Notes: generated from the sequence alone by a model not told the origin. 40,520 bases of DNA from an uncultured cyanobacterium (GCA_963697335.1 CAVONQ010000017.1:1-40520); one strand, 5' to 3'. Shown: positions 22,442-40,520, numbered from the stretch's first letter. A program made the numbers and translations.

Positions 22442-22474
22442 GGGGTGGCCCAGACCCTGCTCCCACCGTGAAGC

Positions 22475-23356: not shown

Positions 23357-23378
23357 CCCCCACCGGTAGCGCCACTCC

Positions 23379-25909: not shown

Positions 25910-28294
25910 TTACGACAAGGAGTGGATCTGCTGGCGCGATGAGGCGAGCCGACGATCAAGCAGGCCCGCCAGCAGCAGGGCGAGCGCCGTGGTGATCAGC
26001 ACCGTGAGGATCTCGGAAGGCTGCAGCGGGGCGAGACTGAGCAGCTGCTGCAAGCCGGGAATGGCCAGCAGCAACAGCCAGAGCCCCAGGCCGATGCCGG
26101 CACCGGCGGCGGTGATGCGGCTGCGGGGATCCCCGTTCAGCCACACCAGCCCACCGCCGGCGAGCAGCAGCAGCGAGAACACCAGGCTGCGGTGGGTGGC
26201 GGCGTCGGACTCGGGCCAGAAGACCAGCACGAGGGCGGCCGCCATCACCACGACGCCCTGGCTGAGCGCACGGCGCCAGGTGTCGGGTCCGAACAGGGGC
26301 GCCTCCGGCGGGCGGGGGGGCTGCCGCATCAGGCCCGGTGTGGCGGGCAGCGCCTCGAACACCACCGTGCAGGCCGGATCGATCACCAGGTGCAGCAGGG
26401 CGATGTGCACCGGCAGCAGGATCAGCGCCTGGCCGCTCAGCAGCAGGGGCACCAGGCCGAGCGCCGCGATCGGCAGGTGGATCGCCAGGGTGTAGCCCAG
26501 GGCCCGATGCAGGTTGGCGTCGACACGCCGGCCCAGCTTCAGGGCCGCCACCAGATCGCTGAAGGTGTCGTTGAGCAGCACCAGATCGGCGGATTCGCGC
26601 GCCACGGCGGTGCCGCGCTTGCCCATCGCCACGCCGATGTCGGCGGCCTTGAGGGCAGGGGCGTCATTGACGCCATCGCCGGTCATCGCCACCACTTCAC
26701 CGGCGGCCTGCAGCGCACGCACCAGCTGCAGCTTCTGCTGGGGCATCACCCGGGCGAACACCGTCACCTCGCGGATGCTGACAGCCAGTTCCTGTGCCGA
26801 GAGGGTGTCCAGCTCCGGGCCGGAGAGCACCGGACCGGGCGGCAGGCCCGCCTGATCGGCGATCGAGCGGGCCGTCACGGGGCTGTCACCGGTGATCATC
26901 ACGATCCGAACGCCAGCACCCCGCGCCGTGGCGATCGCCGCGGGCACATCCGTGCGCAGCGGATCCGCCAGGGCCACGAACCCCAGCGGCTCGAACAGGT
27001 AGCCGTGCACATGATCCGGCAGCGCGCCGCCGTCTGCGGACGGCTGGCCTTCGTGCACCGGCACGCCATCGAGCCCGCGGGCCACCGCCAGCACCCGCAG
27101 CCCCCTGGCGGCGAGCCCATCGGCGGCGGCCAGCAGGGCGGTGGTCTGCCCGCCATCGAGGTGACACAGATCGGCGATCGCCTCGGGCGCCCCCTTGGCG
27201 GCCAGCTGCAGGCTGCCTTCGCCGTCGTGCCAGAGGCGGGAGAACACCAGCAGATCGCTCTGCAGGGGGTATTCCCGCTCAAGGGGCCAGTCGGGATGGA
27301 GGTGTTCGGTGCCGCCGAGGTGGTCGGCGGCCAGGCGCTGGATCGCCAGTTCCATGGCATCCACCGGATCACCGCGGCTGGCCAGCACCGCCAGCTCGAG
27401 CAGCTGATGAACCGGTTCCTCCAGAGTCTCCCCCGCCTGCCAGCCCTCCAGCTGCGGCCAGGTGAGCAGCTGCTGCACCCCCATGCGGTTCTCGGTGAGC
27501 GTGCCGGTCTTGTCGACGGCAAGCACGGTGGCGCTACCGAGGCTCTCCACCGCCGCGGGCCAGCGGGCCAGCACCCCGATCCGGGCCAGGCGCAGGGCGC
27601 CGAGGGCCAGGAACAGGGCCAGCACCACGGGAATTTCGTTGGGCAGCACCGCCAGGGCCAGGGCCAGGGCAGCGAGCAGGGCCTGGGGCCAGTCGCCGCT
27701 GAGTGCTCCCTGGATCACCGCCAGGGCCGCGCAGAGCCCCAGCGCCAGCAGGGTGAGGCGTCCGGTGAGGCGACGGGTCTGGCGCTGCAGCCGGGTGGGC
27801 GGTGGTTGCACCGTGGCCAGGCTGCTGCCGAGCCGGCCCAGTTCGGTGGCGCCGGCCACGGCCACCACCTCGGCCCAGCCGCGGCCACTGGCCACCAGCG
27901 AACCCGCCAGGATCTGCTCCCCGGGCGTGGTGCGGGCAACCGGCAGCGATTCACCGGTGAGCAGCGATTCATCCAGCCACAACCCCACCGCCTCGGTGAT
28001 GGCGGCGTCGGCGGCCACCCGATCGCCTTCCTCCAGCCGCAGCAGATCGCCCACACGCACCTGCTCGGCGGGCAGGTCGAGCTCCTGGCCTTCGCGCCGC
28101 ACGTGGGCGCGGGGTGCCGAGAGGCGGGCCAGCTCGGCCAGGGCATGGTTGCTGCGCTGCTGCTGGACGGCATCCAGCAGGCTGATGCCCAGCACGAATA
28201 CCAGCAGGATGCCGCCATCGACCCATTCCCCGATCAGGCCGTAGATCAGGGCACAGGCCAGCAGCAGCAGGTTGGTGGGCTCCAGCCAGCTCAT
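25910..28294 (-). CDS. cation-translocating P-type ATPase
   Basis: DESLLTGES, DKTGTLT, KGAPE, MITGD and TGDGVNDAPALK. TM4 reads PNEIPVV. Short N-terminus. Confidence 0.92.
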   Translation of the reverse strand: MSWLEPTNLLLLACALIYGLIGEWVDGGILLVFVLGISLLDAVQQQRSNHALAELARLSAPRAHVRREGQELDLPAEQVRVGDLLRLEEGDRVAADAAITEAVGLWLDESLLTGESLPVARTTPGEQILAGSLVASGRGWAEVVAVAGATELGRLGSSLATVQPPPTRLQRQTRRLTGRLTLLALGLCAALAVIQGALSGDWPQALLAALALALAVLPNEIPVVLALFLALGALRLARIGVLARWPAAVESLGSATVLAVDKTGTLTENRMGVQQLLTWPQLEGWQAGETLEEPVHQLLELAVLASRGDPVDAMELAIQRLAADHLGGTEHLHPDWPLEREYPLQSDLLVFSRLWHDGEGSLQLAAKGAPEAIADLCHLDGGQTTALLAAADGLAARGLRVLAVARGLDGVPVHEGQPSADGGALPDHVHGYLFEPLGFVALADPLRTDVPAAIATARGAGVRIVMITGDSPVTARSIADQAGLPPGPVLSGPELDTLSAQELAVSIREVTVFARVMPQQKLQLVRALQAAGEVVAMTGDGVNDAPALKAADIGVAMGKRGTAVARESADLVLLNDTFSDLVAALKLGRRVDANLHRALGYTLAIHLPIAALGLVPLLLSGQALILLPVHIALLHLVIDPACTVVFEALPATPGLMRQPPRPPEAPLFGPDTWRRALSQGVVVMAAALVLVFWPESDAATHRSLVFSLLLLAGGGLVWLNGDPRSRITAAGAGIGLGLWLLLLAIPGLQQLLSLAPLQPSEILTVLITTALALLLAGLLDRRLASSRQQIHSLS

Positions 28295-28516: not shown

Positions 28517-29797
28517 ATGACAGAGAGAAGCCCTCTGAAAGGGTTTGATTGTCTTCACTACAAGCCCCGGGGCGATAAGCGGAACACCCTGTTTTTCGAG
28601 GAGTTTCTGCCGCAGGTCTACGAACGCCGGGCCCGCAGCGGCATCGACGAACTGGTGGGGTCGATGGCAGCTGTGGTGATTCAGGTTGACCATGGCCATG
28701 CGGTGGCCTACATGGCGGAACTGGCCCTGATGGGCCCCTACAGGTTTCGGGAATGCTGGTTGATGGCCACCCATCGGGTCCATCTGCTGGCCGCGGATCC
28801 GCGTTGGCCACGGCTGATCCTGCTGGAGCCGCTGACGGGCGAATTCGAGGATGAGATCACACGCTGGAATGGCATGTATCCGCTGGCGATGAAGCGCCCG
28901 AATGCCAGATATGTGGGCGAAGTGTACTCCACGAGCTCAGCTAAAGCCACGCGCGAGGTCCTGGAGTCACAGAACATCCGCTTTGTCTACCCAGGTGATA
29001 CCAGAAATCCGTTCTATGCCCACCAGCACTATGCCCACGACCATCTGATCTTCACCTTTCTCTCGGATCACACCTACAACCGCGTGGGGTACGTTGATCT
29101 GCCGCTGGATTCCCTGGCGCCGCTGGACCTCGGCGACCGGGTGCTGCTCGATGACGACACCGAGCGCCCGATCGTGGAAGCGGCTGAACGCCATGCCCAG
29201 CTGGGGCTTGAGGGGAAGGTGCTGGGGCTGGATCACATGGCCACCCGGGTGCTGGCGGGCGATCGGGAGGATGCCATTCTTGAGTATCTCACGATGGTGC
29301 CCTACTACTTCTGGGGCGCTTACAACATCAATGAGATGAATTCGTCCACCAATGTGACGCGAGACCCCAGGGTTGACGACGACAAGCTTTCACCGGCGCG
29401 AGTGTTCACAGCCAACAACACGCCCTCCTATCTGAATTCACTCGTGAACCTGCCGATGCCCACCGAAGACTTCGTGCGCAACTTCGGGCGGCGCATGCAT
29501 CATCTTGCCCTGGAGGTGGCCGATGGCGAGGTGGATGGCATCAAGAATGTCGATTTCGTGGTGGGCCAGCTGCGTTCAGCAGGTGTGTCTTTTCTGGCCG
29601 ATGTGGTGGGTGAATGCAGCGATCAGCCCAATCTCAAGCAGATCTTTTCCAAGAGCTCAACCTACTCACTGCTCATCACCGAGTATGTGCAGCGCTGCAT
29701 GGGGTATGAGGGATTCTTCACCCGCGCCAATGTGGCCTCACTCACGGAAGCCGCTGGCCATGCGGAGCGCTATCGGCACGGCAACGTGTTCGACTGA
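28517..29797 (+). CDS. divergent VOC-fold protein resembling 4-hydroxyphenylpyruvate dioxygenase
   Basis: LDHMATRV, MHHLALEV and LKQIFSK...TEYVQR..GYEGFF..NV match the His/His/Glu metal triad and C-terminus of HPPD-like enzymes. Confidence 0.6.
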   Translation: MTERSPLKGFDCLHYKPRGDKRNTLFFEEFLPQVYERRARSGIDELVGSMAAVVIQVDHGHAVAYMAELALMGPYRFRECWLMATHRVHLLAADPRWPRLILLEPLTGEFEDEITRWNGMYPLAMKRPNARYVGEVYSTSSAKATREVLESQNIRFVYPGDTRNPFYAHQHYAHDHLIFTFLSDHTYNRVGYVDLPLDSLAPLDLGDRVLLDDDTERPIVEAAERHAQLGLEGKVLGLDHMATRVLAGDREDAILEYLTMVPYYFWGAYNINEMNSSTNVTRDPRVDDDKLSPARVFTANNTPSYLNSLVNLPMPTEDFVRNFGRRMHHLALEVADGEVDGIKNVDFVVGQLRSAGVSFLADVVGECSDQPNLKQIFSKSSTYSLLITEYVQRCMGYEGFFTRANVASLTEAAGHAERYRHGNVFD

Positions 29798-29970
29798 CAC
29801 CCGAACACGCGACGGTCAGGGAGTGGCTGGAGCAGGGGTAGGGCTCTGCCCGTCTGGATGGCTGGTCTGCGTAGAAACGCTGCAGCTTGCCTGCGATCGT
29901 GGCCATTTCGCTTCCCCCCCGCCCTCAACCTGCCACCACCAGCTGCGGATGGAGCATCCCTGGAACCTCC

Positions 29971-30051
29971 GTGGTTGCGTTCAGCCGATGGCTGGTAGGC
30001 GATGACGTAGGCCCATTCCGCCAGGAGAGTCTTGATCAGTCGTTCCGCCTT
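29971..30051 (-). mobile_element. IS481-family transposase remnant
   Basis: KAERLIKTLLAEWAYVIAYQPSAERN resembles the KAERFIKTLL.EWAY segment of IS481 integrase cores. No other IS part recognised. Confidence 0.65.
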
Positions 30052-30125
30052 AGGCAAAGCCATGAATGGCAGGGTGCTGCTGGTGAGCGGATCCAAGCAG
30101 TGGGTGGTGTCGCCCGGCCCAGAGG

Positions 30126-30276
30126 CGAACACCCAGCTGCCGCGCTAACTGTGGTGGATGGAGCGCTGCCCCAGGGATGAGGCTTCGCGGCTGAGGCTCT
30201 GGCTCTCCCAGTGGACCCCGCGTGGGGAGATGGCGACGTCGTTGTATCGGGTGGAGGAGGACAGGTCACCCTGGGT
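30126..30276 (-). pseudogene. R0: degenerate DUF3427 fragment
   Basis: TQGDLSSSTRYNDVAISPRGVHWESQSLSREASSLGQRSIHHS*RGSWV. Nucleotide similarity to R1 (gtggtggatgg.gcgctgcc...gatgaggcttcgcgg and ggctctggctctcccagtgga). Confidence 0.8.
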
Positions 30277-30375
30277 GGCCCCCCAGGACCTGAGCGGCAT
30301 CCATGCCTTGTTGATGGCCGACACTCCACTGCCTTCAGGCGGGCCATCCTGAAGGCCACCCAGCCTGTTGATCCG

Positions 30376-33216
30376 GTGCTGCTTGCTGCTTCCCAGCCGA
30401 TCTGGTCTCTGCCGCTGGAGCAGGTGTATCCAGGTCTGCGCACCACCCCTGAGGGTCTCAGCCAGGCGGAAGCGGAGCAGCGGCTGGAGCGTTACGGCGC
30501 CAACCGGCTGCCGCCGCTGAAACGCCGCCCCCTGGTGCTGCGTTTCCTCGACCAGATGCTGCATTTCATGGCCCTGCTGCTGTGGATCGCAGGGGTGCTG
30601 GCCTTCGTGGCCGGCACCCCGCAGCTGGGCTCGGCGATCTGGGCGGTGGTGCTGATCAACGGCATCTTCTCGTTCTGGCAGGAGTTCCAAGCGGAGCGCA
30701 CCCTGGACGCTCTCACCCGCTCGCTGCCCCGCCAGGTCCAGGTGTGGCGCGATGGCCGGCTGGGCTTCCGCTCCGCTGAGCAGCTGGTGGCGGGTGACCG
30801 GCTGCTGCTGGAGGAGGGCGATCGGGTGCCGGCCGACTGCCGCATCAGCGTCAGCCATGAGCTGCGCGTCGATCTTTCGGTGCTGACCGGTGAATCGGTG
30901 CCGGTGGCTCGCCAGACCCTGGACCTGCCCGCCGCTCAGGCGGAGCTGCGTCTGCCCAGCGGTGAACGACCCAACCTGCTGCTGGCGGGAAGCACGATCG
31001 CCTCCGGCCGGGGCGAGGCGATCGTGTATGCCACCGGCTCCGAAACCGAATTCGGCCAGGTGGCCCGCCTCACGGCCGGCACCCACCGCAGCGCCAGCAC
31101 CCTGGAGCAGCAGGTGGCCCGCATCGTGCACACGATCAGCACGATCGCCATCACGATGGGCCTGCTCGCCTTCGCCCTGAGCCTGGTCTTCGTGGGCATG
31201 ACGCCCCTGGAGAGCCTGGTGTTCGCGATCGGGATCATCGTGGCCAACGTGCCCGAAGGCCTGCTGCCCACCGTCACCCTGGCGCTGGCCTTGAGCGTGC
31301 AGCGCATGGCCCGTCGCAAGGCGCTGGTGCGGCGTCTCTCGGCGGTGGAAACGCTCGGATCGGTGAGTGTGATCTGCAGCGACAAGACCGGCACCCTCAC
31401 CTGCAACCGCATGGCGGTGGAGGAAACCTGGCTGCCGGTGCCCGGCGAGGATCTGCAGCGGCTGCTGCTCGAGGGGGCCGCCCTCTGCAGCAACGCCCGC
31501 CTCGATGCCGGTGGTGCCGTGGGTGATCCCACCGAAACGGCGATGCTGCAGGCGGCCCAGGCCGCCGGCCTCGATCCGGCTGAGCTGCAGCGCCTCCACC
31601 CACGCCGCCGGGAGATCCCCTTCGATTCACACCGGCGGCGCATGACGGTGCTGGTGATGTGGAACGACCCGCCGTTGTCGATCGCCGACGGCGGCAGCCT
31701 GGTGATCACCAAGGGAGCGCCGCTGGAGGTGCTGGAGCGCTGCGAAGCCTGGCTCACGCCCAGCGGCAGCGAACCGCTCGATCAGAGCCGCCGCCGGCAG
31801 GTGGTGGCCGCCAACGACGACCTGGCCGCCAGGGGCTTCCGGGTGATTGCCGTCGCCCTGCGCGCCGGGCCGGAGGACATGCAGGCGGCGCCGGCAGACG
31901 TTCTGGAGTCGGGCCAGACGCTGCTCGGCCTGCTGGGCCTCTACGACCCGCCCCGACCGGAAGTGCCCGACGCCATCCGCCGCTGCCGCGATGCCGGCAT
32001 CAGGGTCACGATGGTGACCGGGGACTACGGCCTCACGGCCCAGGCGATCGCCCTGCAGATCGGCCTGCTGGAGCCGAGCTCCGCCCATGGCCAGGGAACG
32101 GAAGTCCATCACCGGAGTGGTCGGGCAGGTGCCGATCCCGTGCGGGTGATCGAGGGCTCCACCCTGGCCCAGATCAGCGACGTGCATCTGCGGCAGTTGC
32201 TGAAGTATCGCCACCGGCTGGTGTTCGCCCGCATGGCCCCGGAGCAGAAGCTGCGGCTGGTGCAGGCCTACCAGGCCCTCGGCGAGGTGGTGGCCGTCAC
32301 CGGCGATGGCGTCAACGACGCACCGGCCCTGCGTGCCGCCGATGTGGGCCTCGCCATGGGCATCAGCGGCACCGATGTGGCCCGCGAGGCCGCCGACATC
32401 GTGCTGCTCGACGACAACTTCGCCACGATCGTGGAGGCTGTGCGTTTCGGTCGCTCGGTGGTGGCGAACATCGGCAAGTTCATCACCTACATCCTGGCCT
32501 CGAACGTGCCGGAGATCCTGCCGTTCCTGGCGATGGTGGTGCTGCGGATCCCGGCGGCCCTCACGGTGCTGCAGATCCTGGCGGTGGATCTCGGCACCGA
32601 TCTGCTGCCGGCCCTGGGCCTGGGCTCGGAAGCCCCTGAAGCGGGGGTGATGCACCAGCCGCCACGCCGCCGTGACCTGCCCCTGCTCAACCGGCCCCTG
32701 ATGGTGCGGGCCTACCTGGTGCTGGGGCTGGTGGAGGGACTGATCTCGATGGCCGGCTACCTGCTGGTGTGGCACAACAACGGCGTCGACCTCTCCGCCC
32801 TGCAACAGCTGGCCCCCGATCTGCTCCACCACCGCGCCGCGCCTGCGGTGCAGGCGATCCAGCAACGGGCCTCCACGGTGGCCTTCTGCCTGATCGTGGC
32901 CGGCCAGATGGGGGCACTGCTGGCCTGCCGCAGCGACCGGCGCCCCTTCTGGGAACTGCTTCCCAATCCCAACCCGCTGCTGTGGCTGGGTTGGCTGAGT
33001 GAACCGGTCGTGGCCGGCCTTCTGGTGCTGGTCGCCCCCATCGCCGCCGTTTTCGACATGGCCCGCTTCCCGCTCGGCTACCTCGGCCCGATCGCGCTGG
33101 CACCGGTGGCGGTGCTGGCGGCGGACACGCTGCACAAGTTGTTCATCCGTGAGCGTGGCGGCCCTGCCCAGCACCCCCCTTCTGTGCATCCATGGGCCTC
33201 TTCGAGCGCTGGTTGA
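30376..33216 (+). CDS. cation-transporting P-type ATPase (type II)
   Basis: GLSQAEAEQRL..YGAN, TGES, IIVANVPEGLL, CSDKTGTLT, GDPTE, TGDGVNDAPAL, SNVPE and VDLGTD. The ORF-track start at 30211 runs through R0, so GTG 30376 is preferred. Confidence 0.93.
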   Translation: MLLAASQPIWSLPLEQVYPGLRTTPEGLSQAEAEQRLERYGANRLPPLKRRPLVLRFLDQMLHFMALLLWIAGVLAFVAGTPQLGSAIWAVVLINGIFSFWQEFQAERTLDALTRSLPRQVQVWRDGRLGFRSAEQLVAGDRLLLEEGDRVPADCRISVSHELRVDLSVLTGESVPVARQTLDLPAAQAELRLPSGERPNLLLAGSTIASGRGEAIVYATGSETEFGQVARLTAGTHRSASTLEQQVARIVHTISTIAITMGLLAFALSLVFVGMTPLESLVFAIGIIVANVPEGLLPTVTLALALSVQRMARRKALVRRLSAVETLGSVSVICSDKTGTLTCNRMAVEETWLPVPGEDLQRLLLEGAALCSNARLDAGGAVGDPTETAMLQAAQAAGLDPAELQRLHPRRREIPFDSHRRRMTVLVMWNDPPLSIADGGSLVITKGAPLEVLERCEAWLTPSGSEPLDQSRRRQVVAANDDLAARGFRVIAVALRAGPEDMQAAPADVLESGQTLLGLLGLYDPPRPEVPDAIRRCRDAGIRVTMVTGDYGLTAQAIALQIGLLEPSSAHGQGTEVHHRSGRAGADPVRVIEGSTLAQISDVHLRQLLKYRHRLVFARMAPEQKLRLVQAYQALGEVVAVTGDGVNDAPALRAADVGLAMGISGTDVAREAADIVLLDDNFATIVEAVRFGRSVVANIGKFITYILASNVPEILPFLAMVVLRIPAALTVLQILAVDLGTDLLPALGLGSEAPEAGVMHQPPRRRDLPLLNRPLMVRAYLVLGLVEGLISMAGYLLVWHNNGVDLSALQQLAPDLLHHRAAPAVQAIQQRASTVAFCLIVAGQMGALLACRSDRRPFWELLPNPNPLLWLGWLSEPVVAGLLVLVAPIAAVFDMARFPLGYLGPIALAPVAVLAADTLHKLFIRERGGPAQHPPSVHPWASSSAG

Positions 33217-33302
33217 GTGGCTGAGTGGGGGCCTGGCCGATGCCTGTTGCGGTGTTTGGCCGAGCACCGTGAGGCATCTCTTGGAGGGGTGCAGCCGCAG
33301 CC

Positions 33303-33388
33303 TCGGGGATGTCGAGGCCTTCGTTGCACAGTGCTTGGTCGCAGAACACCGTGGCGAAGAGGATCTGCAACTGGCCGTGGCGCAGGAT
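33303..33388 (-). pseudogene. SF2 helicase C-terminal (motif V) fragment, probably from the same parent gene as the DUF3427 repeats
   Basis: LRHGQLQILFA-TVFCDQALC-NEGLDIPE resembles the G.LQ.LF.VD.FNEG.DIP motif. Same strand as the repeats. Confidence 0.65.
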
Positions 33389-33409
33389 CAAATGCTGAGA
33401 GGTAGGGAT

Positions 33410-33655
33410 TCAGAGGAGACCCAGGAACGTCTCCACGTCAATACCTGCCTGGCGCAGCACGCTCCCCAGGGTGCCCACCGCCAGATCCCGGCGATGCAAC
33501 GGCACGACGCAGGTGACGCTGGCTTCGCCACTCTCAGGGTTGCTCGACGGTCTTCGCAGCACCACATGGCTGCCTTTCTGACGCACCACTTGAAAGCCCA
33601 GACGCTGCAACGCGGCGATGACGGCGGACGCCGGCAGCCGTGGCAACTTAGGCAA
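33410..33655 (-). CDS. HicA-family toxin
   Basis: LQRLGFQVVRQKGSHVVL...VVPLH..DLAVGTLGSVLRQAG. TTG start overlaps the hicB-like stop. Confidence 0.9.
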   Translation of the reverse strand: MPKLPRLPASAVIAALQRLGFQVVRQKGSHVVLRRPSSNPESGEASVTCVVPLHRRDLAVGTLGSVLRQAGIDVETFLGLL

Positions 33656-33866
33656 CGTTGACCTCGAAGGTGGTCAGCAGACGGGGCGCCAGCACCGGCT
33701 GGGGGCACTCCTCCAGGTAGAGCTCGGTGGCTTCGCGCAGATTGGCCAGGGCTTCCTCGATGGTGTCGCCCTGGCTGGCGGTGCCGACTTCCGGGCACTC
33801 CGCCACATACAGCTCCTCTTCCCGGTACAGGATCGCCGTCAGGCGCTGGGGGGTGGCGGTCGTCAT
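33648..33866 (-). CDS. HicB-family antitoxin
   Basis: YVAECPEVGTASQGDTIEEALANLREATELYL. Confidence 0.9.
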   Translation of the reverse strand: MTTATPQRLTAILYREEELYVAECPEVGTASQGDTIEEALANLREATELYLEECPQPVLAPRLLTTFEVNVA

Positions 33867-33903
33867 GGTCGCCAGCAGCTTGGTTGATCCAGTTTGGCCC
33901 CCC

Positions 33904-34281
33904 TCACACCGCCACCGCCTGCTCCGGAACGAACGCCGCAGGGATCGGCTGCTGCAGGCGCCAGCGAATCGCCATCGGCCGCTCGCCTTCGTGGCTCACG
34001 TCTTCGGCAAAACCGAGGCAGTGGAACGGCTTGGTGACGACGCCCCGGTTGTTCACGGTGGTGGATGGTGCGCTGCCACGTGGATGAGGCTTCGCGGGTG
34101 AGGCTGCCCAGGGGAGGCTCTGGCTCTCCCAGTGGAGCTCCCATGGGGAGATGGCGTCGTCCTTGGTGCGGCTGGTGGGGGAGAAGAGGGCTTCGCTCTT
34201 GTTGAGGGTCACGAACAGCAGGTCGGTGTGGCTGGGTTCGTGCCAGAGCACGCCTTCACGGTGGATCCAAGGGGCGTCGTC
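33904..34281 (-). repeat. R1: DUF3427 gene 3'-tail repeat (mosaic, decayed)
   Basis: DDAPWIHREGVLWHEPS.TDLLFVTLNKSEALFSP...HWESQS...SHEGERPMAIRWRL...AVAV*. Contains a 14-nt insertion and a compensating deletion. Confidence 0.92.
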
Positions 34282-34624
34282 AGAGAGATGAACGAACTTC
34301 TACCCAGTGCTCTCCTTCAAGAAGGCTGGCGATGGCCTGATCAAGCGTTTGCAGCAGAACCTCTTGAAGGGCTTTGTTGGAGCTGTTTCCCACACGAAGC
34401 CAGATCACCTGTGGTGGGGGACCTTGCTTGAAGAGGAGAGCGAGGAAGTCGCGATCTTTTGTCATCACAACAGCCCCTGCAGACCTCGCCTGGGCGAAGA
34501 TCTCCTGGTCTTCGGCATCTCTGAGGCCCAGATTCCTGACAGGCACGGCTTGGATGTGAGGCCATTGCGCCATGATCCAGGTCGCCAGGGCTGGCGAGAG
34601 CTGGGCATCAAGCCAGAGGATCAC
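34280..34624 (-). CDS. DUF5615 (PIN-like, VapC45-type) toxin
   Basis: LWLDAQLS, LRDAEDQEIF, VMTKDRDF and PPQVIWLRVGN. GTGA overlap with the upstream DUF433 gene. Confidence 0.88.
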   Translation of the reverse strand: MILWLDAQLSPALATWIMAQWPHIQAVPVRNLGLRDAEDQEIFAQARSAGAVVMTKDRDFLALLFKQGPPPQVIWLRVGNSSNKALQEVLLQTLDQAIASLLEGEHWVEVRSSL

Positions 34625-34839
34625 GCCACGAGCACCGGGTGATCCAATTCGCGAGCGGCATAGGTGAGAGCAGCCTGTAGATCTTCGGGCTCAAGATCCG
34701 GTAGCTCGGCAAGGATCTGGTCGGGGCTGAGCCCGGCCGCGTAAAGGTCAAGCACATCGCTAACCCGGATCCGCATCCCTCGGATGCAGGGCTTGCCGCC
34801 GCACTGTGCAGGGTTGTACGTGATGCGTGAATCACTCAT
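34621..34839 (-). CDS. DUF433-family antitoxin
   Basis: RITYNPAQCGGKPCIRGMRIRV and LPDLEPEDLQAALTYA. Confidence 0.92.
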   Translation of the reverse strand: MSDSRITYNPAQCGGKPCIRGMRIRVSDVLDLYAAGLSPDQILAELPDLEPEDLQAALTYAARELDHPVLVA

Positions 34840-34867
34840 CCCAGAAATCTAGCCGGCCTGAGCATTC

Positions 34868-35710
34868 TCAAACCGCCAACCCCATCCCCTGCATCCACGC
34901 CGCCGGTATCGCCCGCTCGAGCCGCCACCGAATCGCCATCGGCCTCTCCCCCTCGTGGCTCACGTAGCGGGCAAACCCCAGACACCGAAACGGCTCGGTG
35001 ACACCCCCTGCCCGGCCGCCCTCACGCCGGTGCTCGCGCACGTCGCCGCAGGCTTCTGCGAAGAAGTACAGCAGCACCCGTGAGCCCCGCGCCTCGTGGT
35101 GGATGTAGCGCTGGCCGGTGGGGGAGGCAGCGGTGGTGGTGCTCTGGCTCTCCCAGTGGAACAGCGCGGGGCCCAGGGCCAGGTCGCGGTAGCGGGTGGT
35201 GGGGGAGAAGAGGGATTCGCTCTTGTTGAGGGTCACAAAGAGCAGATCGCACTGGCTGGGTTCGTGCCAGAGCACGCCTTCGCGGTGGATCCAGGGGGCG
35301 TCGCCCGTCAGGATCCCGAACGCCGCTTCGATTTCGGCCCGGCTGTAGCGGCCGTGGACGCGCAGGGGAACCGGCAGGGCCCAGGGCAGCGGGTGGAGGC
35401 GGCGTTCGGTGCGCTCGGCCAGCAGGTGCAGCAGCTGGCGCAGTTCGTCGCGCCAGGCGGATGCCTGCCAGAGCAGGGCGAGGGCATCGGGCAGGGGCCG
35501 CCAGCGCTTGCCGGTGCCGCACAGCTGGGCGGTGGCGCGCAGGCGATCGGGATCGTCGAGGCGGAGCAGGCTGGCGCCGATGGCGCGGGTGAGCGATTCC
35601 TCGCGGGGATGGGGCTCGCCAGGGAGCCAGCCCAGCTCGCGCCGCAGGCTGGTGAAGCCGGCGCCCCGCACCCCGTAGAAGTCGGCCGGGTCCATGGCCA
35701 GCGCGTCGAG
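34868..35710 (-). repeat. R2: longest DUF3427 gene 3'-tail repeat (open frame, 5'-truncated)
   Basis: About 280 codons from LDALAMDP through PLRVHGRYSRAEIEAAFG, HREGV, FVTLNKS, FHWESQS and SHEGERPMAIRWRL to WMQGMGLAV*. The 5' limit is approximate because no longer copy is visible. Confidence 0.92.
35042..35068. mobile_element. small double-hairpin insert (+24 nt) at site B of R2
   Basis: gtcgccgcaggcttctgcgaagaagta replaces the single Phe codon present in R3 and R4. Confidence 0.7.
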
Positions 35711-35870
35711 CCCTTCGACCTGCAAGGAGGCGCCGTGAGTGCAGACCACCCAGCGGCTGGAGTCCCGAGCGATGCCGTTCCACTTGGTGGTGAGCACCAA
35801 CACCGCCTCGCCACTGCCTGAACCGCATCCAGCTCCAGGCAAACCGAGCGCTTGTTCCTACGATCGCCCC

Positions 35871-36098
35871 ATGGCCTTCCCGCGCATCAGCCACGATCCC
35901 GCCGTGATGGGCGGCAAGCCCTGCATCCGTGGGTTGCGTATCACCGTGGGCACGATCGTGGGACTGGTTGCCCGTGGCAGCAGCCGCGAGCGCATCCTGC
36001 AGGCCTACCCGCTGCTTGAGCCGGCCGACATCGATGAGGCTCTCGCCTACGCGGCCTGGCGCATGGAAGAGAGGGAAGAGGCTCTGGTCCTGAGCTGA
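35871..36098 (+). CDS. DUF433-family antitoxin
   Basis: MAFPRISHDPAVMGGKPCIRGLRITV and YPLLEPADIDEALAYAAW. Confidence 0.92.
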   Translation: MAFPRISHDPAVMGGKPCIRGLRITVGTIVGLVARGSSRERILQAYPLLEPADIDEALAYAAWRMEEREEALVLS

Positions 36099-36475
36099 TG
36101 GCCAGGCTTCTGGTCGACATGAACCTCTCTAGAGAATGGATCCCGCTCCTTCAGGCCGCAGGCCATGAGGCTGTGCATTGGTCAGAGGTGGGCGACCCGA
36201 AGGCTCCTGACAGGACTCTGATGCAGTGGGCCACGACCAACGACTACGCCGTCTTCACGCACGACCTGGACTTCGGCACGATGCTTGCCCTCAGCGGCGC
36301 CGATGGACCCAGCGTGGTGCAGGTGCGCTGCCTCAACGTGCTCCCTGAAGCCATCGGCTCTCTGGTGCTTTCGCTTCTGCGAACCTATGCCGCCGAGATC
36401 GAGCAAGGGGCACTCGTGGTGGCTGATGAACGGCGTGAACGGGTACGAATCCTGCCGCTGAGCCGACAGGGCTGA
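36098..36475 (+). CDS. DUF5615 (PIN-like) toxin
   Basis: LLVDMNLS, AVHW, APDRTLM, VFTHDLDFG and GPSVVQVR. TGATG coupling with the DUF433 gene. Confidence 0.9.
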   Translation: MARLLVDMNLSREWIPLLQAAGHEAVHWSEVGDPKAPDRTLMQWATTNDYAVFTHDLDFGTMLALSGADGPSVVQVRCLNVLPEAIGSLVLSLLRTYAAEIEQGALVVADERRERVRILPLSRQG

Positions 36476-36633
36476 GCCAGCTTTCTGTGTGCGGCTCAGC
36501 TGCGGCAGGCCGGCCAGCAGCATTGCACCACGATCACGCGCGGTCTCGAGATCTTCTGCCTTTCCGGCACACTCTCCCGGAATGGTGGTGACTGGGCGAG
36601 GGGGGCATCGTGAGAGCAAGGAGGCTACGGCCC

Positions 36634-37155
36634 TCAAACCGCCAACCCCATCCCCTGCATCCACCCCGCCGGTATCGGCCGCTCCAACCGCCACCGAATC
36701 GCCATCGGCCGCTCCCCCTCGTGGCTCTCGTAGCGGACAAACCCCAGACACCGAAACGGCTCGGTGACACCCCCGGCGCGGCCACCCTCACGCCGGTGCT
36801 CCCGCACAAACAACAGCACCCGTGAACCCCGCGCCTCGTGGTGGATAGTCCGCTGACCGGTGGGCGAGGCGGCGGCGGTGGTGCTCTGGCTCTCCCAGTG
36901 GAACAGGAAGGGACCGAGGGCCAGGTCGCGGTAGCGGGTGGAGGGGGAGAAGAGGGCTTCGCTCTTGTTGAGGGTCACGAACAGCAGGTCGGTCTGGCTG
37001 GGTTCGTGCCAGAGCAGGCCTTCGTGGTGGATCCAGGGGGCGTCGTCGCGCAGGATCCAGAAGCCGCAAGGCTTCTGCGCAGCAGTAGGCCGCTTCGATC
37101 CCGGCGCGGCTGTAGCGGCCCTGGACGCGCAGGCGCACCGGCAGGGCTCAGGGCA
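36634..37155 (-). repeat. R3: DUF3427 gene 3'-tail repeat
   Basis: Closely similar to R2 and R4 from the PWAL region to GLAV*. A 25-nt insert causes a frameshift, and there is a TGG>TGA change near the 5' end. Confidence 0.93.
37060..37087. mobile_element. small double-hairpin insert (+25 nt) at site A of R3
   Basis: gaagccgcaaggcttctgcgcagcagta is absent from R2, which has a single TTC codon at this position. Confidence 0.7.
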
Positions 37156-37194
37156 CCGTGGCCTGTGCTTGGAAGGCTCGCGATGATGAAGCCC

Positions 37195-37457
37195 ATGACC
37201 ACCACGCCGACACCTCTGGTGACCCGGGAGGCGCTGTTTGCGTTCACGCAGCGGCTGGTGGAGCGCTACGCCCTCAAGGAGGTGATCCTGTTCGGTTCCC
37301 TGGATCTGCTGGTCCTGCGGCCGGAGGAGGTTGAGGTTCGCTACCGGGGGGCGATCCGGTCGTGCGCGGGGCGATTGACCATGGAGAGGTGCTCCATGGA
37401 TGAACCCTGGTGGGCCGTTCCGGAGTGGATGCCTAGGCGGAAGGCGATTGGGAAGCC
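37195..37457 (+). pseudogene. decayed MNT-HEPN pair
   Basis: PLVTREALFAFTQRLVERYALKEVILFGS, then an internal deletion, LDLLVLRPEEV, a frameshift and GDPVVRGAIDHGEVLHG*, followed by the HEPN start remnant EW...EGDWEA. Paralogous to 38777-39491. Confidence 0.8.
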
Positions 37458-37531
37458 CAAAGAACATCTGAGCTGGCGCCCATCCTTTCTGGGCCGAATG
37501 AGGCGGCTGGTGATCTTTTTGCAGAATCACC

Positions 37532-37921
37532 TCATTCCAAGCTCTTGATCATTTGCCGAACCCAGTTGCTCAAGGCCTGGCGCCCAAGCGCTCCGGAGGC
37601 CACAGCGAGAATGGTGGCTTCCGCTGCTTCCGTCGAAGCGGTCAGTTCGTACCCGTTCAGCATCAGCATGACTTCCATGGCGGCATGACCGATGCGTTTG
37701 TTGCCATCCACAAAGGGATGGTTCCGGATCAAAGAAAACCCAAGTGCTGCTGCCTTATCGACGAGAGTGGGGTAGAGATCAGTGCCCGAGAATGTCTGGC
37801 GGGGCTGCGAGAGTGACGCCTCCAGTAGGCCAAGGTCCCGCAATCCGGGCAATCCACCAGAGGTGGCGATCAGACGGCGATGCAGCTCCAGAACCTCGCT
37901 GAGGCTGAGAAAGCGGATCAA
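37532..37921 (-). CDS. Fic/Doc (death-on-curing) family toxin
   Basis: GLRDLGLLEA and the Doc-type motif HPFVDGNKRIG. TTGA overlap with the upstream gene. Confidence 0.92.
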   Translation of the reverse strand: MIRFLSLSEVLELHRRLIATSGGLPGLRDLGLLEASLSQPRQTFSGTDLYPTLVDKAAALGFSLIRNHPFVDGNKRIGHAAMEVMLMLNGYELTASTEAAEATILAVASGALGRQALSNWVRQMIKSLE

Positions 37922-38112
37922 GCCAGGCGCCGGTAGAGCTCCTCATTCTTTGCCAGCACCTGGGAGGCGGCGACTTCAAAGTCGGCGGAGGGCCTGCTCA
38001 ACAGATCGCGAACGGCGGCTGCCGCCAGGTCCTGCTGGGCCACATTGAGCCGTACAGCCACCTCGGCGAGGGCACGGGATTGCTCTTCACTGAGATTGAT
38101 GGCGAGGGCCAT
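37918..38112 (-). CDS. putative antitoxin of the Doc toxin
   Basis: 64 aa with an RHH-like N-terminus and C-terminal VLAKNEELYRRLA, typical of Doc partners. GGAGG RBS upstream. Confidence 0.8.
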   Translation of the reverse strand: MALAINLSEEQSRALAEVAVRLNVAQQDLAAAAVRDLLSRPSADFEVAASQVLAKNEELYRRLA

Positions 38113-38163
38113 GTCACTCCTCCAGGACACTCACTTTAGGAGGGGTTGATGGGGGTTGCCCCC

Positions 38164-38732
38164 TCAAACCGCCAACGCCATCCCCTGCATCCACCCCGCC
38201 GGTATCGCCCGCTCCAGCCTCCAGCGAATCGCCATCGGCCGCTCCCCCTCGTGGCTCTTGTAGCGGACAAACCCCAGACACCGGAACGGCTCGGTGACAC
38301 CCCCGGCGCGGCCACCCTCACGCCGGTGCTCCCGCACAAACAACAGCACCCGTGAACCCCGCGCCTCGTGGTGGATGGTGCGCTGGCCGGTGGGGGAGGC
38401 GGCGGTGGTGGTGCTCTGGCTCTCCCAGTGGAACAGGGAGGGGCCGAGGGCCAGGTCGCGATAGCGGGTGGAGGGGGAGAACAGGGCTTCGCTCTTGTTG
38501 AGGGTCACGAACAGCAGGTCGCTCTGGCTGGGTTCGTGCCAGAGGACGCCTTCGCGGTGGATCCAGGGGGCGTCATCGCGCAGGATCCCGTAGCCGCAGG
38601 CTTCTGCGCAGCAGTAGGCCGCTTCGATCTCGGCGCGGCTGTAGCGGCCGTGGACGCGCAGGGGAACCGGCAGGGCCCAGGGCAGCAGCTCCAGCAGTTG
38701 GTGCAGGTCGTGGCGCCAGGCTGCGGCCTGCC
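38164..38732 (-). repeat. R4: DUF3427 gene 3'-tail repeat (frame open throughout, no start at its 5' end)
   Basis: QAAAWRHDLHQLLELLPWALPVPLRVHGRYS...MALAV*. Has a 33-nt in-frame deletion relative to R2 and a 24-nt in-frame insert. Confidence 0.93.
38590..38616. mobile_element. small double-hairpin insert (+24 nt) at site A of R4
   Basis: gtagccgcaggcttctgcgcagcagta, flanked by GTA direct repeats. Encodes YCCAEACGY on the minus strand. Confidence 0.75.
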
Positions 38733-38776
38733 TGGCTGAAGGTCAAGCACCTGGCATAGCCGGCGATGATGGAAGC

Positions 38777-39100
38777 ATGGCAAAGGCACCGCTCGTCACT
38801 CAGGAAGCCCTGAAGGCCTTCACCGATCGCCTGGTGGAGGCGTTTGCCCCGGAGCAGGTGATTCTGTTCGGCTCGATGGCACGAGGAACAGCTGGTCTGG
38901 AGTCGGATGCCGATGTGTTGGTGGTGATGCCCTTTGAAGGGAGAGCCCTGGAGAAGATCCTGGAAATCCGCGAGGTTTGCCACCCTGAGTTTCCTCTGGA
39001 CATGCTTCTTTGGCGACCGGAGGACATACCCAGGCGCTATGGCTGGGGTGACCCGTTCATCCGTGAAGCCCTCGATCACGGTGTGGTGCTGCATGGCTGA
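38777..39100 (+). CDS. minimal nucleotidyltransferase (MNT) antitoxin
   Basis: VILFGSMARG...SDADVLVV motif. Confidence 0.9.
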   Translation: MAKAPLVTQEALKAFTDRLVEAFAPEQVILFGSMARGTAGLESDADVLVVMPFEGRALEKILEIREVCHPEFPLDMLLWRPEDIPRRYGWGDPFIREALDHGVVLHG

Positions 39101-39491
39101 GCGCAATCCTGTTGTTGACGAGTGGATCAGCAAGGGCGAGGGAGATTGGCGGGCCATGCAGTTGTTGCATCAGCAGCCAGGGCATGAGGATGCGGTGGTC
39201 TTTCACGCTCAGCAGTGTCTGGAGAAGTACTTCAAGGCAGCCCTGATTGCTCATGGGGAGACTGTGCAGAAGATCCATGATCTTCGGGAGCTCTCCAGGC
39301 AACTCGGGGCCCTGATGCCGGATTGGGAGGCTGATCCTTCCGATCTGACCCGGATCACCCAGGGAGGGGTGATGTTTCGCTACCCGGGGATGGAGGCCCA
39401 ACCAGAGGACGCCGCCAGGGCCGTTGCCATCACCCAAGGAGTGAGGCAGCGGCTTTCCGGGTGGCTGGGGACCCTTTCTGAAGCCGGTTGA
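39093..39491 (+). CDS. HEPN-domain toxin
   Basis: EWISKGEGD, VFHAQQCLEKYFKA, KIHDL and FRYP. Overlaps the MNT stop. Confidence 0.9.
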   Translation: MAERNPVVDEWISKGEGDWRAMQLLHQQPGHEDAVVFHAQQCLEKYFKAALIAHGETVQKIHDLRELSRQLGALMPDWEADPSDLTRITQGGVMFRYPGMEAQPEDAARAVAITQGVRQRLSGWLGTLSEAG

Positions 39492-39500
39492 ACGGCATCC

Positions 39501-39926
39501 TCAAACCGCCAACCCCATCCCCTGCATCCACCCCGCCGGTATCGCACGCTCCAGCCGCCAGCGGATCGCCATCGGCCGCTCCCCCTCATGGCTCTCGTAG
39601 CGGGCAAACCCCAGACACCGAAACGGCTCGGTGACACCACCCTGCCTGCGGTGCTCCCGCACGTAGCCGAAGGCTTCTGCGAAGCAGTACAGCAGCACCC
39701 GCGAACCTCGCGCCTCATGGTGGATGGTGCGCTGACTGGTGGGGTCGGCGGCGGTGGTGCTGCTCTGGCTCCCCCAGTGGAACAGCGAGGGGCCGAGGGC
39801 CAGGTCGCGGGTGCGGGTGGAGGGGGAGAAGAGGGCTTCGCTCTTGTTGAGGGTCACGAACAGCAGGTCGGTGTGGCTGGCTTCGTGCCAGAGGACGCCT
39901 TCGCGGTGGATCCAGGGGGCGTCGTC
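39501..39926 (-). repeat. R5: DUF3427 gene 3'-tail repeat
   Basis: DDAPWIHREGV through WMQGMGLAV* in one open frame, with a 24-nt insert and a 12-nt deletion. Same 5' junction as R1. Confidence 0.93.
39663..39689. mobile_element. small double-hairpin insert (+24 nt) at site B of R5
   Basis: gtagccgaaggcttctgcgaagcagta, flanked by GTA direct repeats. Encodes YCFAEAFGY. Confidence 0.75.
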
Positions 39927-39975
39927 TGTGAAGCTGACGAAACCGCCAGACTTCTGGGCAGAACTGGTCCAGTCT

Positions 39976-40155
39976 TCAACCCGCACCGAGGCTGGCGAGA
40001 ATCTTGCGGGCCAGAGGTTCTTTGATTTCGTTGTGTCTGGGGATGGCTTCCTTGACTCCAGTGGCTGGGTTGATCCAGATGGAGTGTGAAGCTCCTTCCC
40101 GTTTCAGGACACATCCAGCCATGCGAAGACGCCGTTCCAGATCGCGGCGTTTCAT
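39976..40155 (-). CDS. HicA-family toxin (59 aa, absent from the ORF track)
   Basis: Hand translation MKRRDLERRLRMAGCVLKREGASHSIWINPATGVKEAIPRHNEIKEPLARKILASLGAG*. ATGA overlap with the hicB-like stop. Confidence 0.88.
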   Translation of the reverse strand: MKRRDLERRLRMAGCVLKREGASHSIWINPATGVKEAIPRHNEIKEPLARKILASLGAG

Positions 40156-40370
40156 CCGATCTGCAGGGGCATGCGCACGGCATCAGGTGGCAGGCCACGG
40201 CTGATGTCAGCCGCACGATCCTCAAGGAGAAGCTCAATGGCGGCCTGCAGATCCTTTCTTGCTTCCTCCATGGTTTCTCCCTGACCGTTCGCGCCGGGAA
40301 GTTCCAGGCAGATCGCCCAGAAGCCACCCTCTGGAGCTGGCTCAATCACGGCAGTCAGTTCTCCCTTCAT
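40152..40370 (-). CDS. HicB-family antitoxin
   Basis: LTAVIEPAPEGGFWAICLELPGANGQGETMEEARKDLQAAIELLL. Confidence 0.9.
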   Translation of the reverse strand: MKGELTAVIEPAPEGGFWAICLELPGANGQGETMEEARKDLQAAIELLLEDRAADISRGLPPDAVRMPLQIG

Positions 40371-40471
40371 CAAACCCGCCTCGGTTACACATTCCAATCA
40401 GTTTAGGTACAACGAAGAGTGGCAGTAGCCATGGAGGTGACCAGGCGCCCTCTCCTGACGCGGAGCCCCCC

Positions 40472-40520
40472 TCAAACCGCCAACCCCATCCCATGCATCC
40501 ACGCCGCCGGTATCGCCCGC
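40472..40520 (-). repeat. R6: DUF3427 3' end cut by the window edge (another repeat or the intact parent gene)
   Basis: tcaaaccgccaaccccatcccatgcatccacgccgccggtatcgcccgc encodes RAIPAAWMHGMGLAV*. Confidence 0.9.

Follow-up and report, generated by a model that had tools for sequence, protein, structure and literature searches.

The accumulation of toxin-antitoxin (TA) genes in chromosomes is usually ascribed to plasmids, phages, integrons or unexplained hot spots. In integrons, TA cassettes are thought to stabilise the array, and in the accretion of integrative and conjugative elements (ICE) and cis-mobilizable elements (CIME), integrative elements come to be stacked tandemly at the 3' end of a target gene; the tycheposon islands of Prochlorococcus (bioRxiv 10.1101/2020.12.28.424599) are reportedly a further analogue. 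The present work concerns a TA array in a 40,520-nt stretch of DNA from an uncultured cyanobacterium (GCA_963697335.1, CAVONQ010000017.1:1-40520), referred to below as the window, in which short TA cassettes alternate with co-oriented fragments, or stubs, of the 3' end of a SauUSI-like restriction gene. The closest published models for such an array are the C-terminal displacement of Rhs proteins (PMC2935791) and the sequential displacement put forward for arrays of type VI secretion systems (T6SS). The latter concerns the T6SS effector-immunity arrays of Vibrio cholerae, in a paper whose accessible sections also discuss both homology-facilitated illegitimate recombination and a likeness to integrons (PMC5361080).

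[quoted passage not shown] They differ in their anchor, which in Rhs and T6SS arrays is a conserved 5' core followed by the gene's own variable toxic tip and an immunity gene, whereas in the window it is a conserved 3' tail, with an unrelated, self-contained TA pair as the variable part, and the locus described here has, unlike theirs, a mirrored arm that repeats the 5' head of another gene. With integron arrays, a comparison also made in the accessible part of PMC5361080, the window shares serial short cassettes, each with one recombination-relevant element at its 3' side, and breakpoints at the end of that element; it differs in having no IntI and no attC hairpin, in carrying cargo in both orientations with its own regulation, in repeating an element of 50-900 nt that is coding sequence, and in having a second arm that uses a different repeat. 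The likeness to integrons drawn in a preliminary description of this DNA does not extend to an adjacent IntI, to attC sites or to co-oriented promoterless cassettes. ICE and CIME islands and tycheposons resemble the present arrays in their direct repeats of a target-gene 3' end between cargo blocks, in having an intact gene at one end and in picocyanobacterial hosts. Their repeats are fixed-length att sites produced by the integrase of elements that are kilobases long, whereas the stubs described here range from ~50 to more than 1400 nt and separate units of ~0.7 kb TA pairs; no integrase was found and the 5' ends of the stubs vary, which is not what an accretion island made by an integrase would show. 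By their defining tests, the array is neither an integron, nor an integrase-made accretion island, nor an Rhs-type array.

No description of such a stub and TA array was found in the literature, subscription-only papers and supplements apart, and the earlier remark that no named system of this architecture was known holds for these searches. The seven TA pairs of CB0101 are said, in the accessible part of PMC5498466, just to lie in genomic islands, and a preprint on subcluster 5.2 (2025) discusses only the enrichment of HigB; the available sections of the papers on SauUSI-type enzymes describe no downstream stub or TA arrays (PMC3141236, PMC6765204). The evidence points to an unusual, so far undescribed way of stacking TA genes, a variant of displacement or accretion arrays distinguished by a precise but unexplained joint and by a second, mirrored arm. 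The anatomy of the array, its distribution, the reshuffling of its cassettes, its unit structure and its breakpoints were observed directly in the genomes compared. The reading preferred here, to which a probability of roughly 0.55 is given, is that the array is one arm of a two-armed zone of TA accretion around modification-dependent nuclease genes, driven by host recombination, in freshwater and brackish picocyanobacteria.

Gene tails and their distribution

A search of positions 30000-40520 for repeats yielded six members of a 54-nt family, which begin at 33899, 34863, 36629, 38159, 39496 and 40467 and are 72-100% identical to the reference copy; longer repeat families cover the same sites. 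The stubs to which these repeats belong (R1 to R6) were delimited with a nucleotide profile made from the last 1500 nt of six relatives' restriction genes, in which the stop codon is position 1497, and all tail copies in the window lie on the minus strand. R1 (33904-34296, profile start 1081) is of a divergent allele type; its match to PF11907 (DUF3427) falls below the Pfam cut-off, and it is 58% identical in amino acid sequence to a relative's parent protein over a single, frameshift-free high-scoring segment pair (tblastn). R2 (34868-35749, made up of 34868-35534 and 35537-35749; profile start 577) is the longest, an open frame of about the last 300 codons that matches DUF3427 (Pfam, 5e-13) as well as positions 747-934 of the 945-position PADLOC model mREase_IV (E 1.5e-43). 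The DUF3427 match is also above the cut-off in R3 (36634-37158, profile start 1010; 2e-14), R4 (38164-38734, profile start 930) and R5 (39501-39963, profile start 1057; 1.4e-8), while R6 consists of the last 49 nt of a further copy (40472-40520, profile start 1449), inside which the contig ends. The five main stubs are open frames and come from different alleles; pairwise identity among R1 to R6 is 70-94.5%, the highest value being that of R3 and R4 across 525 nt, and a blastn comparison of each copy with all 18 contigs of the genome confined the stubs to this one contig. With cassette families given as letters, the order in the window is R6, L, R5, C, R4, J, R3, X, R2, G, R1, B, a remnant, an ATPase gene and R0.

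The six same-direction DUF3427 gene tails alternating with cargo that had been reported for this DNA are borne out by the repeat search, by blastn and by the profile, with coordinates that agree to within ~40 nt; two decayed remnants, taken up with the ATPase gene below, are additional to those reported. The alternative raised at that time, that tail fragments might be scattered genome-wide, is contradicted by blastn and tblastn, which place stubs nowhere else in the genome.

In relatives the parent gene encodes a protein of ~1060 amino acids, of which the stub is the end, and combines PLDc_2, ResIII/Helicase_C and DUF3427 in six of six cases (Pfam), which is likewise the PLD nuclease, SF2 helicase and DUF3427 architecture of SauUSI-type enzymes. 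It matches PADLOC mREase_IV (Type IV methyl-directed restriction) over its full length (E 1.5e-268), and the closest solved chain is PDB 7clg_A (E 2e-74), named just 'Putative helicase' in the structure table, which we take to be SauUSI. The repeated tail is, by these matches, the C-terminal part of DUF3427 in a SauUSI-like Type IV restriction enzyme, a domain presumed in the available parts of two papers to recognise the target, modified cytosine (PMC3141236, PMC6765204).

The window itself holds fragments of the SauUSI-like gene only, because a tblastn search found no PLD or helicase part of the parent gene anywhere on the 18 contigs. The intact parent gene that was expected from an extension of the contig to the right was not reached: the window is the entire contig (C17), and no other contig carries tail or parent sequence. 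The distal flank in a relative with a complete genome (G012) matches window positions 22474-25472 at 95.6% identity, and the proximal copy there is a 5'-truncated fragment that starts at nucleotide 1614 of the gene. Since the relative with this near-identical flank has only a truncated proximal copy, the present genome may lack an intact gene too, or the gene may fall in an assembly gap. In another relative (G007; L032 3031-7415), SIR2-like, HsdS and HsdM genes occupy the position of the intact gene and are followed by stubs only, and this array persists without its parent gene.

Every junction between cargo and stub in the window is spanned separately by Logan contigs of even depth, 22-30, from a run (X1) that may be the source sample; these contigs break within the repeats, so the junctions are supported, whereas the unit order depends on the assembly and on analogy with relatives. 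The spanned junctions speak strongly against an artefact in which the repeats and their order were made by mis-assembly of a repetitive region. The contig does terminate in a repeat, and short-read contigs break in every repeat, but the copies diverge by 5-30% and the identical architecture occurs in single-contig genomes (G002, G012 and G013), and such an artefact is extremely improbable. Joints that link stubs across cassettes (e.g. 39564 to 40466) in three metagenome runs (X2, X4 and X5) were not used as evidence, having been accepted at a minimum likeness of 90 with short sides; they could reflect other strains or collapsed repeats.

PF11907 matches occur in 21 of the 31 other genomes of the genus, several of them as a long open frame followed by further matches, and with the tail protein as query 25 of the genus's 32 genomes show a match. 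When each species was represented by a single genome, a scan gave 79 loci, in Cyanobium, freshwater and estuarine Synechococcus, Vulcanococcus and similar organisms, along with orthologues at ~48% identity in Thermoanaerobaculia and Actinomycetota, and these loci were pooled with those found earlier after duplicate genomes had been removed. To count as informative, a picocyanobacterial locus had to include the complete gene end and 3 kb or more of downstream sequence (n=42). Extra stubs are present in 35 of the 42, at 1-7 per locus (one in nine loci, two in nine, three in eight, four in three, five in five and seven in one). The 208 tail copies in 69 loci are without exception co-oriented, and in 35 of the 69 a convergent selO is found at the distal end of the array. 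Of the 139 inter-stub segments, whose median length is 693 nt, 130 are below 1.4 kb. When the tail of each locus was used as its own query, an extra co-oriented copy was found in none of 28 non-cyanobacterial loci (Acidobacteriota and Actinomycetota), two of which have short opposite-strand matches of 20-39 nt.

TA-family Pfam matches occur in 31 of the 32 inter-stub segments of eight relatives, the families being HicAB, MNT-HepT or MNT-HEPN, DUF433-DUF5615, Doc, HigBA and PIN-MazE, and the remaining segment carries DoxX and DUF1830. A recognisable TA pair lies just downstream of the gene in one of 12 non-cyanobacterial loci scanned, and TA-type genes lie there in three of eight stub-free cyanobacterial loci. 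The array feature is real and conserved across the lineage, and the comparison of loci confirms the expectation of variable TA cargo downstream of the orthologous gene in relatives.

Clustering of the inter-stub segments at 72% identity or more over at least 60% of their length produced 115 cassette clusters, 24 of which have two or more members. Each of the six window cassettes has counterparts in other species, at other ranks: family B, which is sixth in the window, takes the place nearest the gene in seven loci, and family C does so in five and family J in three. The relative with the near-identical flank (G012) nevertheless has family G alone in common with the window array. The same cassette families occupy different ranks in different species.

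The stubs show considerable decay, with internal gaps in 46 of 148, truncation at the 3' end in 49 of 148, and stops or deletions in many. This decay bears on the proposal that stubs form a silent store of specificity domains, acting as gene-conversion donors that change restriction specificity in the manner of pilS or hsdS, with the TA pairs as passengers. The proposal fits a stub that is part of the presumed target-recognition domain (accessible parts of PMC3141236 and PMC6765204), and it fits the open frames from different alleles in the window, but besides the gaps, truncations and stops it has to contend with arrays that persist where no intact gene is seen (G007, G012) and with the mirrored array, which repeats the 5' head of another gene and not a specificity domain. 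It also leaves the near-exclusive TA content without a reason, and is judged very improbable.

Linkage, joints and the evolving unit

The two boundaries of a stub behave differently. The 3' boundary is the stop codon, similarity between copies ending within a few nucleotides of it, and the 5' boundary is variable, ranging over profile positions 133-1452, and largely specific to the cassette that lies upstream in gene orientation. The following stub starts at profile position 1101-1104 in six of seven members of family F, at 1035-1036 in seven of ten members of family B, and at 343 in five of nine members of family C. One cargo flank is joined to several truncation points across species, and the cargo-side junction of R4 is at profile position 343, of the family-C type and as in three other species, after which the stub jumps to ~930; because of these two features, stubs appear to shrink by internal deletion. 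In three loci (L060, L071 and L083) the restriction gene, or no less than its last 1.5 kb, is present as two tandem copies with one cassette or a short segment between them, and in L071 the two copies are of different allele types, with 56% and 49% identity to the query tail; these loci may be early stages before stub trimming.

The linkage between stubs and cassettes was evaluated on pairs of stubs from different loci, aligned to the profile; such pairs are phylogenetically non-independent, and the shuffle counts given here are indications, not probabilities. Stubs that share the upstream cassette are more alike, with an excess identity of +0.076 at profile positions 1100-1180, the first 80 nt of the common ~400-nt tail, a value reached by 0 of 300 label shuffles; along the tail the excess continues as +0.052, +0.029 and +0.048 and ends at +0.012 at positions 1420-1497. 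Stubs that share the downstream cassette show no excess identity (+0.004 at 1420-1497, reached by 79 of 300 shuffles), and the result is equally null for fragments alone and for long copies alone. An initial reading of the BLAST blocks, in which the unit was a tail with the cargo downstream of it, was given up in view of these tests.

The position of the joint on the other side of the cassette can be located from the cargo. Nine members of family B have an upstream tail that reaches the stop codon, and these tails are of at least four end types, while the first 60 nt of the cargo are near-identical (by eye). The type of stop codon tracks the cargo and not the tail type: it is TAG in eight of eight cases for family D, TAG in five and TAA in one of six for family F, and TGA in nine of nine for family B and seven of seven for family C. 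Since one family follows several tail types and the stop type goes with the cargo, the left-hand joints fall within a stretch of 13-19 nt at the stop codon that is common to all allele types. The evolving unit is then the TA pair with the stub that follows it, because tails co-vary with the upstream and not the downstream cassette and the breakpoints lie at the stop-codon core. Across the 2.58-Mb genome the 13-nt core is present at five sites, all of them stub ends, with no secondary sites; at up to two mismatches it is found eight times in the window, where 1.6 occurrences are expected, and no obvious dyad was seen at it by eye.

The lack of downstream linkage is also the main difficulty for displacement of the Rhs, CdiA or T6SS kind, in which an incoming allele with its own downstream TA pair truncates the resident gene and shifts the resident tail and TA pair downstream by homology-facilitated illegitimate recombination. 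A model of this type is published for T6SS effector-immunity arrays (accessible sections of PMC5361080), and several features of the present arrays agree with it: blocks of the window match a parent tail and first cargo elsewhere (33374-34287 in G002, 37501-38684 in G019 at 91%, and 38730-39906 in G015), the stubs are different, in-frame allele types, the most distal copies are the most decayed, and the points at which the gene was originally truncated vary, each cassette family having its own. Displacement, however, expects a tail to be linked to the module downstream of it, and this linkage, which the likeness to Rhs and CdiA arrays in the preliminary description would entail, is not seen overall, in fragments or in long copies; one cassette, moreover, follows several tail types. 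As an account of the arrays displacement is quite unlikely, but since the truncation points are family-specific and essentially arbitrary it may explain the birth of units, though not their distribution.

Junctions are moderately enriched at one point within the tail, ~408 nt before the stop codon, where stub 5' ends lie at, for example, window 34281-34296 and L025 9046 and 12212. When the flanks of 71 loci were clustered, 15 of 55 junction classes had an end there, and one 20-nt bin held 10 ends compared with 1-5 in other bins, counts in which some ends are internal deletions of parent-derived sequence or alignment breaks. In the first nine loci this point had seemed to be an extreme hot spot of 5' ends, a suggestion that the 71 loci reduced to the enrichment just given. 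Within 30 nt of the point lie the starts or ends of no fewer than three different TA genes. A run of G after many stop codons (window 38150-38176) and a run of C at the 5' junction (34281-34296) form a 7-nt inverted repeat which brackets the 408-nt tail, in relatives as well, and which is absent from TAG-ending tails; it may be due to chance in a genome of 68% GC.

A mirrored array and the process behind both arms

A genome-wide self-comparison for local direct repeats found a second TA array at the start of another contig, C6 (C6 1-8000, locus L130/L144). Its repeated element is the head of a gene for a 338-amino acid HNH and HIT protein, as found intact in a relative (G009), of which three co-oriented fragments are present: residues 4-133 at C6 2016-2405, residues 5-57 at C6 4576-4751, and residues 6-261 at C6 5929-6662. 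The heads alternate with VapB-PIN, an HTH gene, MNT-HepT, MazE-MazF, PIN_2 and RHH-PIN. The 370-nt head repeat has matches in 26 of the genus's 32 genomes, in most of them more than one. In the six relatives whose coordinates allow a comparison (G002, G009, G012, G013, G015 and G023), the head copies are found upstream of the restriction gene, beyond the defence block. In G009 the complete order is dcd, TA pairs with HNH-HIT heads, the intact HNH-HIT gene, an open reading frame (ORF) that has an HNH motif and no Pfam match, a DUF2806 gene, the SauUSI-like gene, TA pairs with tails, and selO. Probably the C17 end and the C6 start belong to one such locus as its two sides, although they do not overlap. 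The ORF between the HNH-HIT and DUF2806 genes of G009 (L134 2605-3318) encodes 237 amino acids with an HNH-like Cys/His motif and has no Pfam match at E 1e-4; its N-terminal part presumably resembles EVE/PUA-type modification readers.

The boundary that stays constant in the mirrored arm is the natural 5' end, ~40 nt ahead of the start codon; the one that varies is a 3' truncation. The sequence at the boundary shows no relation to the first array's core, no copy of which is found there. On both sides, cargo abuts the natural outer end of the terminal gene of the block, with the stub of an older copy outside it. The tail had earlier been described as the recombination handle of the array; the linkage results fit this idea, a cargo moving with the stub that follows it and the breakpoints being located at the stub's 3' end, but the tail is not unique in this role, the 5' head of the HNH-HIT gene being used in the mirrored array.

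No recombinase was found among 102 ORFs flanking the loci of six relatives, or among 45 larger window ORFs scanned outside the array; one DDE transposase lies upstream in G002. PF00589 has no match on the window contig and six matches on contigs C2, C10, C15 and C16. Tyrosine recombinase genes lie within 5.3 kb of three contig starts (C2 1405-1905, C16 3437-5303 and C15 5-551), and two with identical scores are probably copies of one repeated element. In a stub-free Synechococcus locus, a 75-amino acid remnant of the phage-integrase family is found 680 nt after the stop codon of the restriction gene (L052 5537-5764). Folding of eight tail ends revealed no attC-like or common hairpin (z-scores -2.33 to +1.33), just one of the eight folds being reached by no more than 1 of 200 shuffles. 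The reported absence of an integrase and of attC is upheld by the flanking ORFs of the six relatives, the ORFs of the window and the folding of the tail ends.

These negative results bear most directly on an integron-like process, in which a recombinase or nuclease encoded elsewhere would cut and join at the stop-codon core and move units of TA pair and stub, the stub or its 3' end having a role like that of attC. Much of the joint evidence would be accommodated by such a process: breakpoints lie within the 13-19 nt core, the type of stop codon segregates with the cargo, each unit has one constant and one variable boundary, the core is found only at stub ends in the genome and is in excess in the window, the 208 copies are uniformly co-oriented, and tyrosine recombinase genes are present on other contigs. 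It is opposed by the lack of an attC-like hairpin and of a recombinase beside the arrays in six relatives or the window, by cargo that consists of self-contained operons in both orientations, by the unrelated boundary of the mirrored array, which has no copy of the core, and by the 49 of 148 stubs that have no 3' end. An enzyme-driven process of this kind is on the whole unlikely, and it is a serious rival because of the asymmetric linkage, the very short left joint and the lack of extra homogenisation at 3' ends.

The preferred reading relies instead on host recombination. Under the pathway that we infer, a new unit of TA pair and 5'-truncated stub would be placed right after the stop codon of the resident tail, so that older units are pushed outward, by host recombination that could be RecA-type, short-homology, or a switch of template, either between copies of the chromosome or with DNA from outside. 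The long homologous arm would be supplied by the stub, and the other joint by the 13-19 nt at the stop codon in which the alleles all agree. As the donor arms map crossed onto a single resident tail, placement in this crossed order would depend on two chromosome copies, on a circular intermediate or on template switching. Stubs would then shrink by internal deletions, and the restriction to TA content would follow from an addiction filter: loss of a cassette between flanking direct repeats would free its toxin, so that only addictive cargo persists. A mirrored array with unrelated sequence argues for a general mechanism and not for one sequence-specific site, and the absence of a nearby recombinase and of a hairpin at the tail end also favours a general mechanism.

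Several points weigh against this reading. Plain homologous recombination predicts that a stub is linked symmetrically to both of its neighbours, whereas the linkage observed is asymmetric, and the asymmetry requires that nearly all left joints fall within the 13-19 nt, a length below what RecA-dependent exchange usually needs. Within-genome homogenisation of 3' ends was considered as the cause of the asymmetry and rejected: the within-genome minus between-genome difference is +0.036 at the 3' end and +0.080 in the 5' part, and as homogenisation is not stronger at the 3' end the simple model is not rescued. To these are to be added the PLD and helicase parts of the parent gene, missing from all contigs of this genome, and the status of DUF433-DUF5615, which is a predicted and not an established TA pair. 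It is possible, if doubtful, that the arrays are a new gene-capture platform, in which TA cassettes with defence-gene stubs are inserted precisely at the outer ends of the nuclease block, after the SauUSI-like stop codon on one side and ~40 nt before the HNH-HIT start codon on the other, through a novel enzyme or a short-homology pathway.

Cargo of the window and significance

The window cassettes appear, from their family matches, to comprise five Pfam-supported or predicted TA pairs, a Doc gene beside an ORF of no family, and one decayed MNT (nucleotidyltransferase antitoxin) gene. Family B (33410-33866, minus strand; 10 members in other species by segment clustering) pairs a HicB-like antitoxin (33648-33866) with a HicA toxin (33410-33655; Pfam 6.7e-17), and family L (39976-40397, minus strand; 4 members) a HicB-like gene (40152-40397) with a 59-amino acid HicA (39976-40155; 7.7e-10). 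These are the two HicBA pairs of the preliminary description, in which HicA is above the Pfam cut-off and the partners, DUF7387/HicB-like in family B and UPF0150-like in family L, fall below it. Family G (34280-34839, minus strand; 7 members) consists of DUF433 (34621-34839; 7.4e-26) and PIN-like DUF5615 (34280-34624; 6.6e-25), and family X (35868-36475, plus strand and opposite to the stubs; 2 members) of DUF433 (35868-36098; 5.1e-23) and DUF5615 (36098-36475; 8.1e-25). Pfam supports both families of these pairs, but DUF5615, present in two copies, is only predicted to be a PIN-like toxin, and no paper naming both DUF433 and DUF5615 was found in the literature search. Family J (37532-38130, minus strand; 5 members) has a Doc toxin (37532-37921; Pfam Fic 4.4e-21), which alone among all window cargo is named by NCBIfam above its cut-off (TIGR01550, 62.9 bits), and in antitoxin position a 70-amino acid ORF (37918-38130) that matches no family. 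Family C (38777-39491, plus strand and opposite to the stubs; 9 members) combines MNT (38777-39100; NTP_transf_2 1.4e-10) with HEPN (39093-39491; 3.3e-18), and the decayed MNT remnant (37210-37458, plus strand) has no Pfam or NCBIfam match and was recognised by tblastn with the intact MNT of the array (39% over 99 amino acids, E 9e-7).

The two HicA toxins, Doc and HEPN are above the Pfam cut-off and partner genes overlap by 4-8 nt, so that the HicA, Doc and HEPN pairs have the gene-pair arrangement of type II TA modules, with a predicted function. The claim of a TA pair in every segment stands for HicA twice, DUF433-DUF5615 twice, Doc, MNT-HEPN and the decayed MNT, with the qualification that DUF433-DUF5615 is a predicted pair and that the partner of Doc has no family match. 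As had been stated, the cargo is found in either orientation, with two of the six cassettes on the strand opposite to the stubs, and several cargo genes are AT-richer than the core: the GC fraction is 0.56-0.62 in four of the six cargo segments and 0.67-0.72 in the stubs. None of twelve cargo proteins has a paralogue elsewhere in the genome at E 1e-4.

One segment of the window carries a non-TA gene. A P-type cation ATPase gene (30211-33216, plus strand; Pfam E1-E2_ATPase 9e-44, Cation_ATPase_C 1e-36) lies between the two decayed remnants. One of these, directly distal to the HicA gene, derives from a more upstream part of the restriction gene (33302-33386, minus strand; profile 153-222, nhmmer E 2.5e-8). 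The other, R0, is a tail fragment (30128-30263, minus strand; profile 1190-1328) found by nhmmer (E 5e-21), by tblastn with a relative's parent protein (52% over 50 amino acids) and in a repeat family. The two represent parts of one old long stub (ATPase locus, 30128-33386), and it looks as if ~3 kb of non-TA DNA has replaced the middle of that stub around the ATPase gene. A second P-type ATPase is encoded at 25910-28294 on the minus strand. An ORF at 29770-30132, minus strand, adjoins R0; it has no Pfam match, and its C-terminal motif presumably corresponds to one of IS481/IS3-type transposases.

The traces of the process at this locus are unusually legible, with a stub per event, a constant joint and dozens of cassette families across many species, and the arrays are a natural system for recombination between diverged alleles at very short common sequences. 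The locus physically links TA modules to modification-dependent restriction genes and might stabilise the defence island against loss; if the arrays are a capture platform, they would be addictive TA walls around the defence island across the whole picocyanobacterial clade. If the preferred reading is true, the arrays offer a concrete and testable route by which TA genes spread and ratchet up in number with no mobile-element machinery of their own, and they would explain the many TA pairs of freshwater and estuarine picocyanobacteria.

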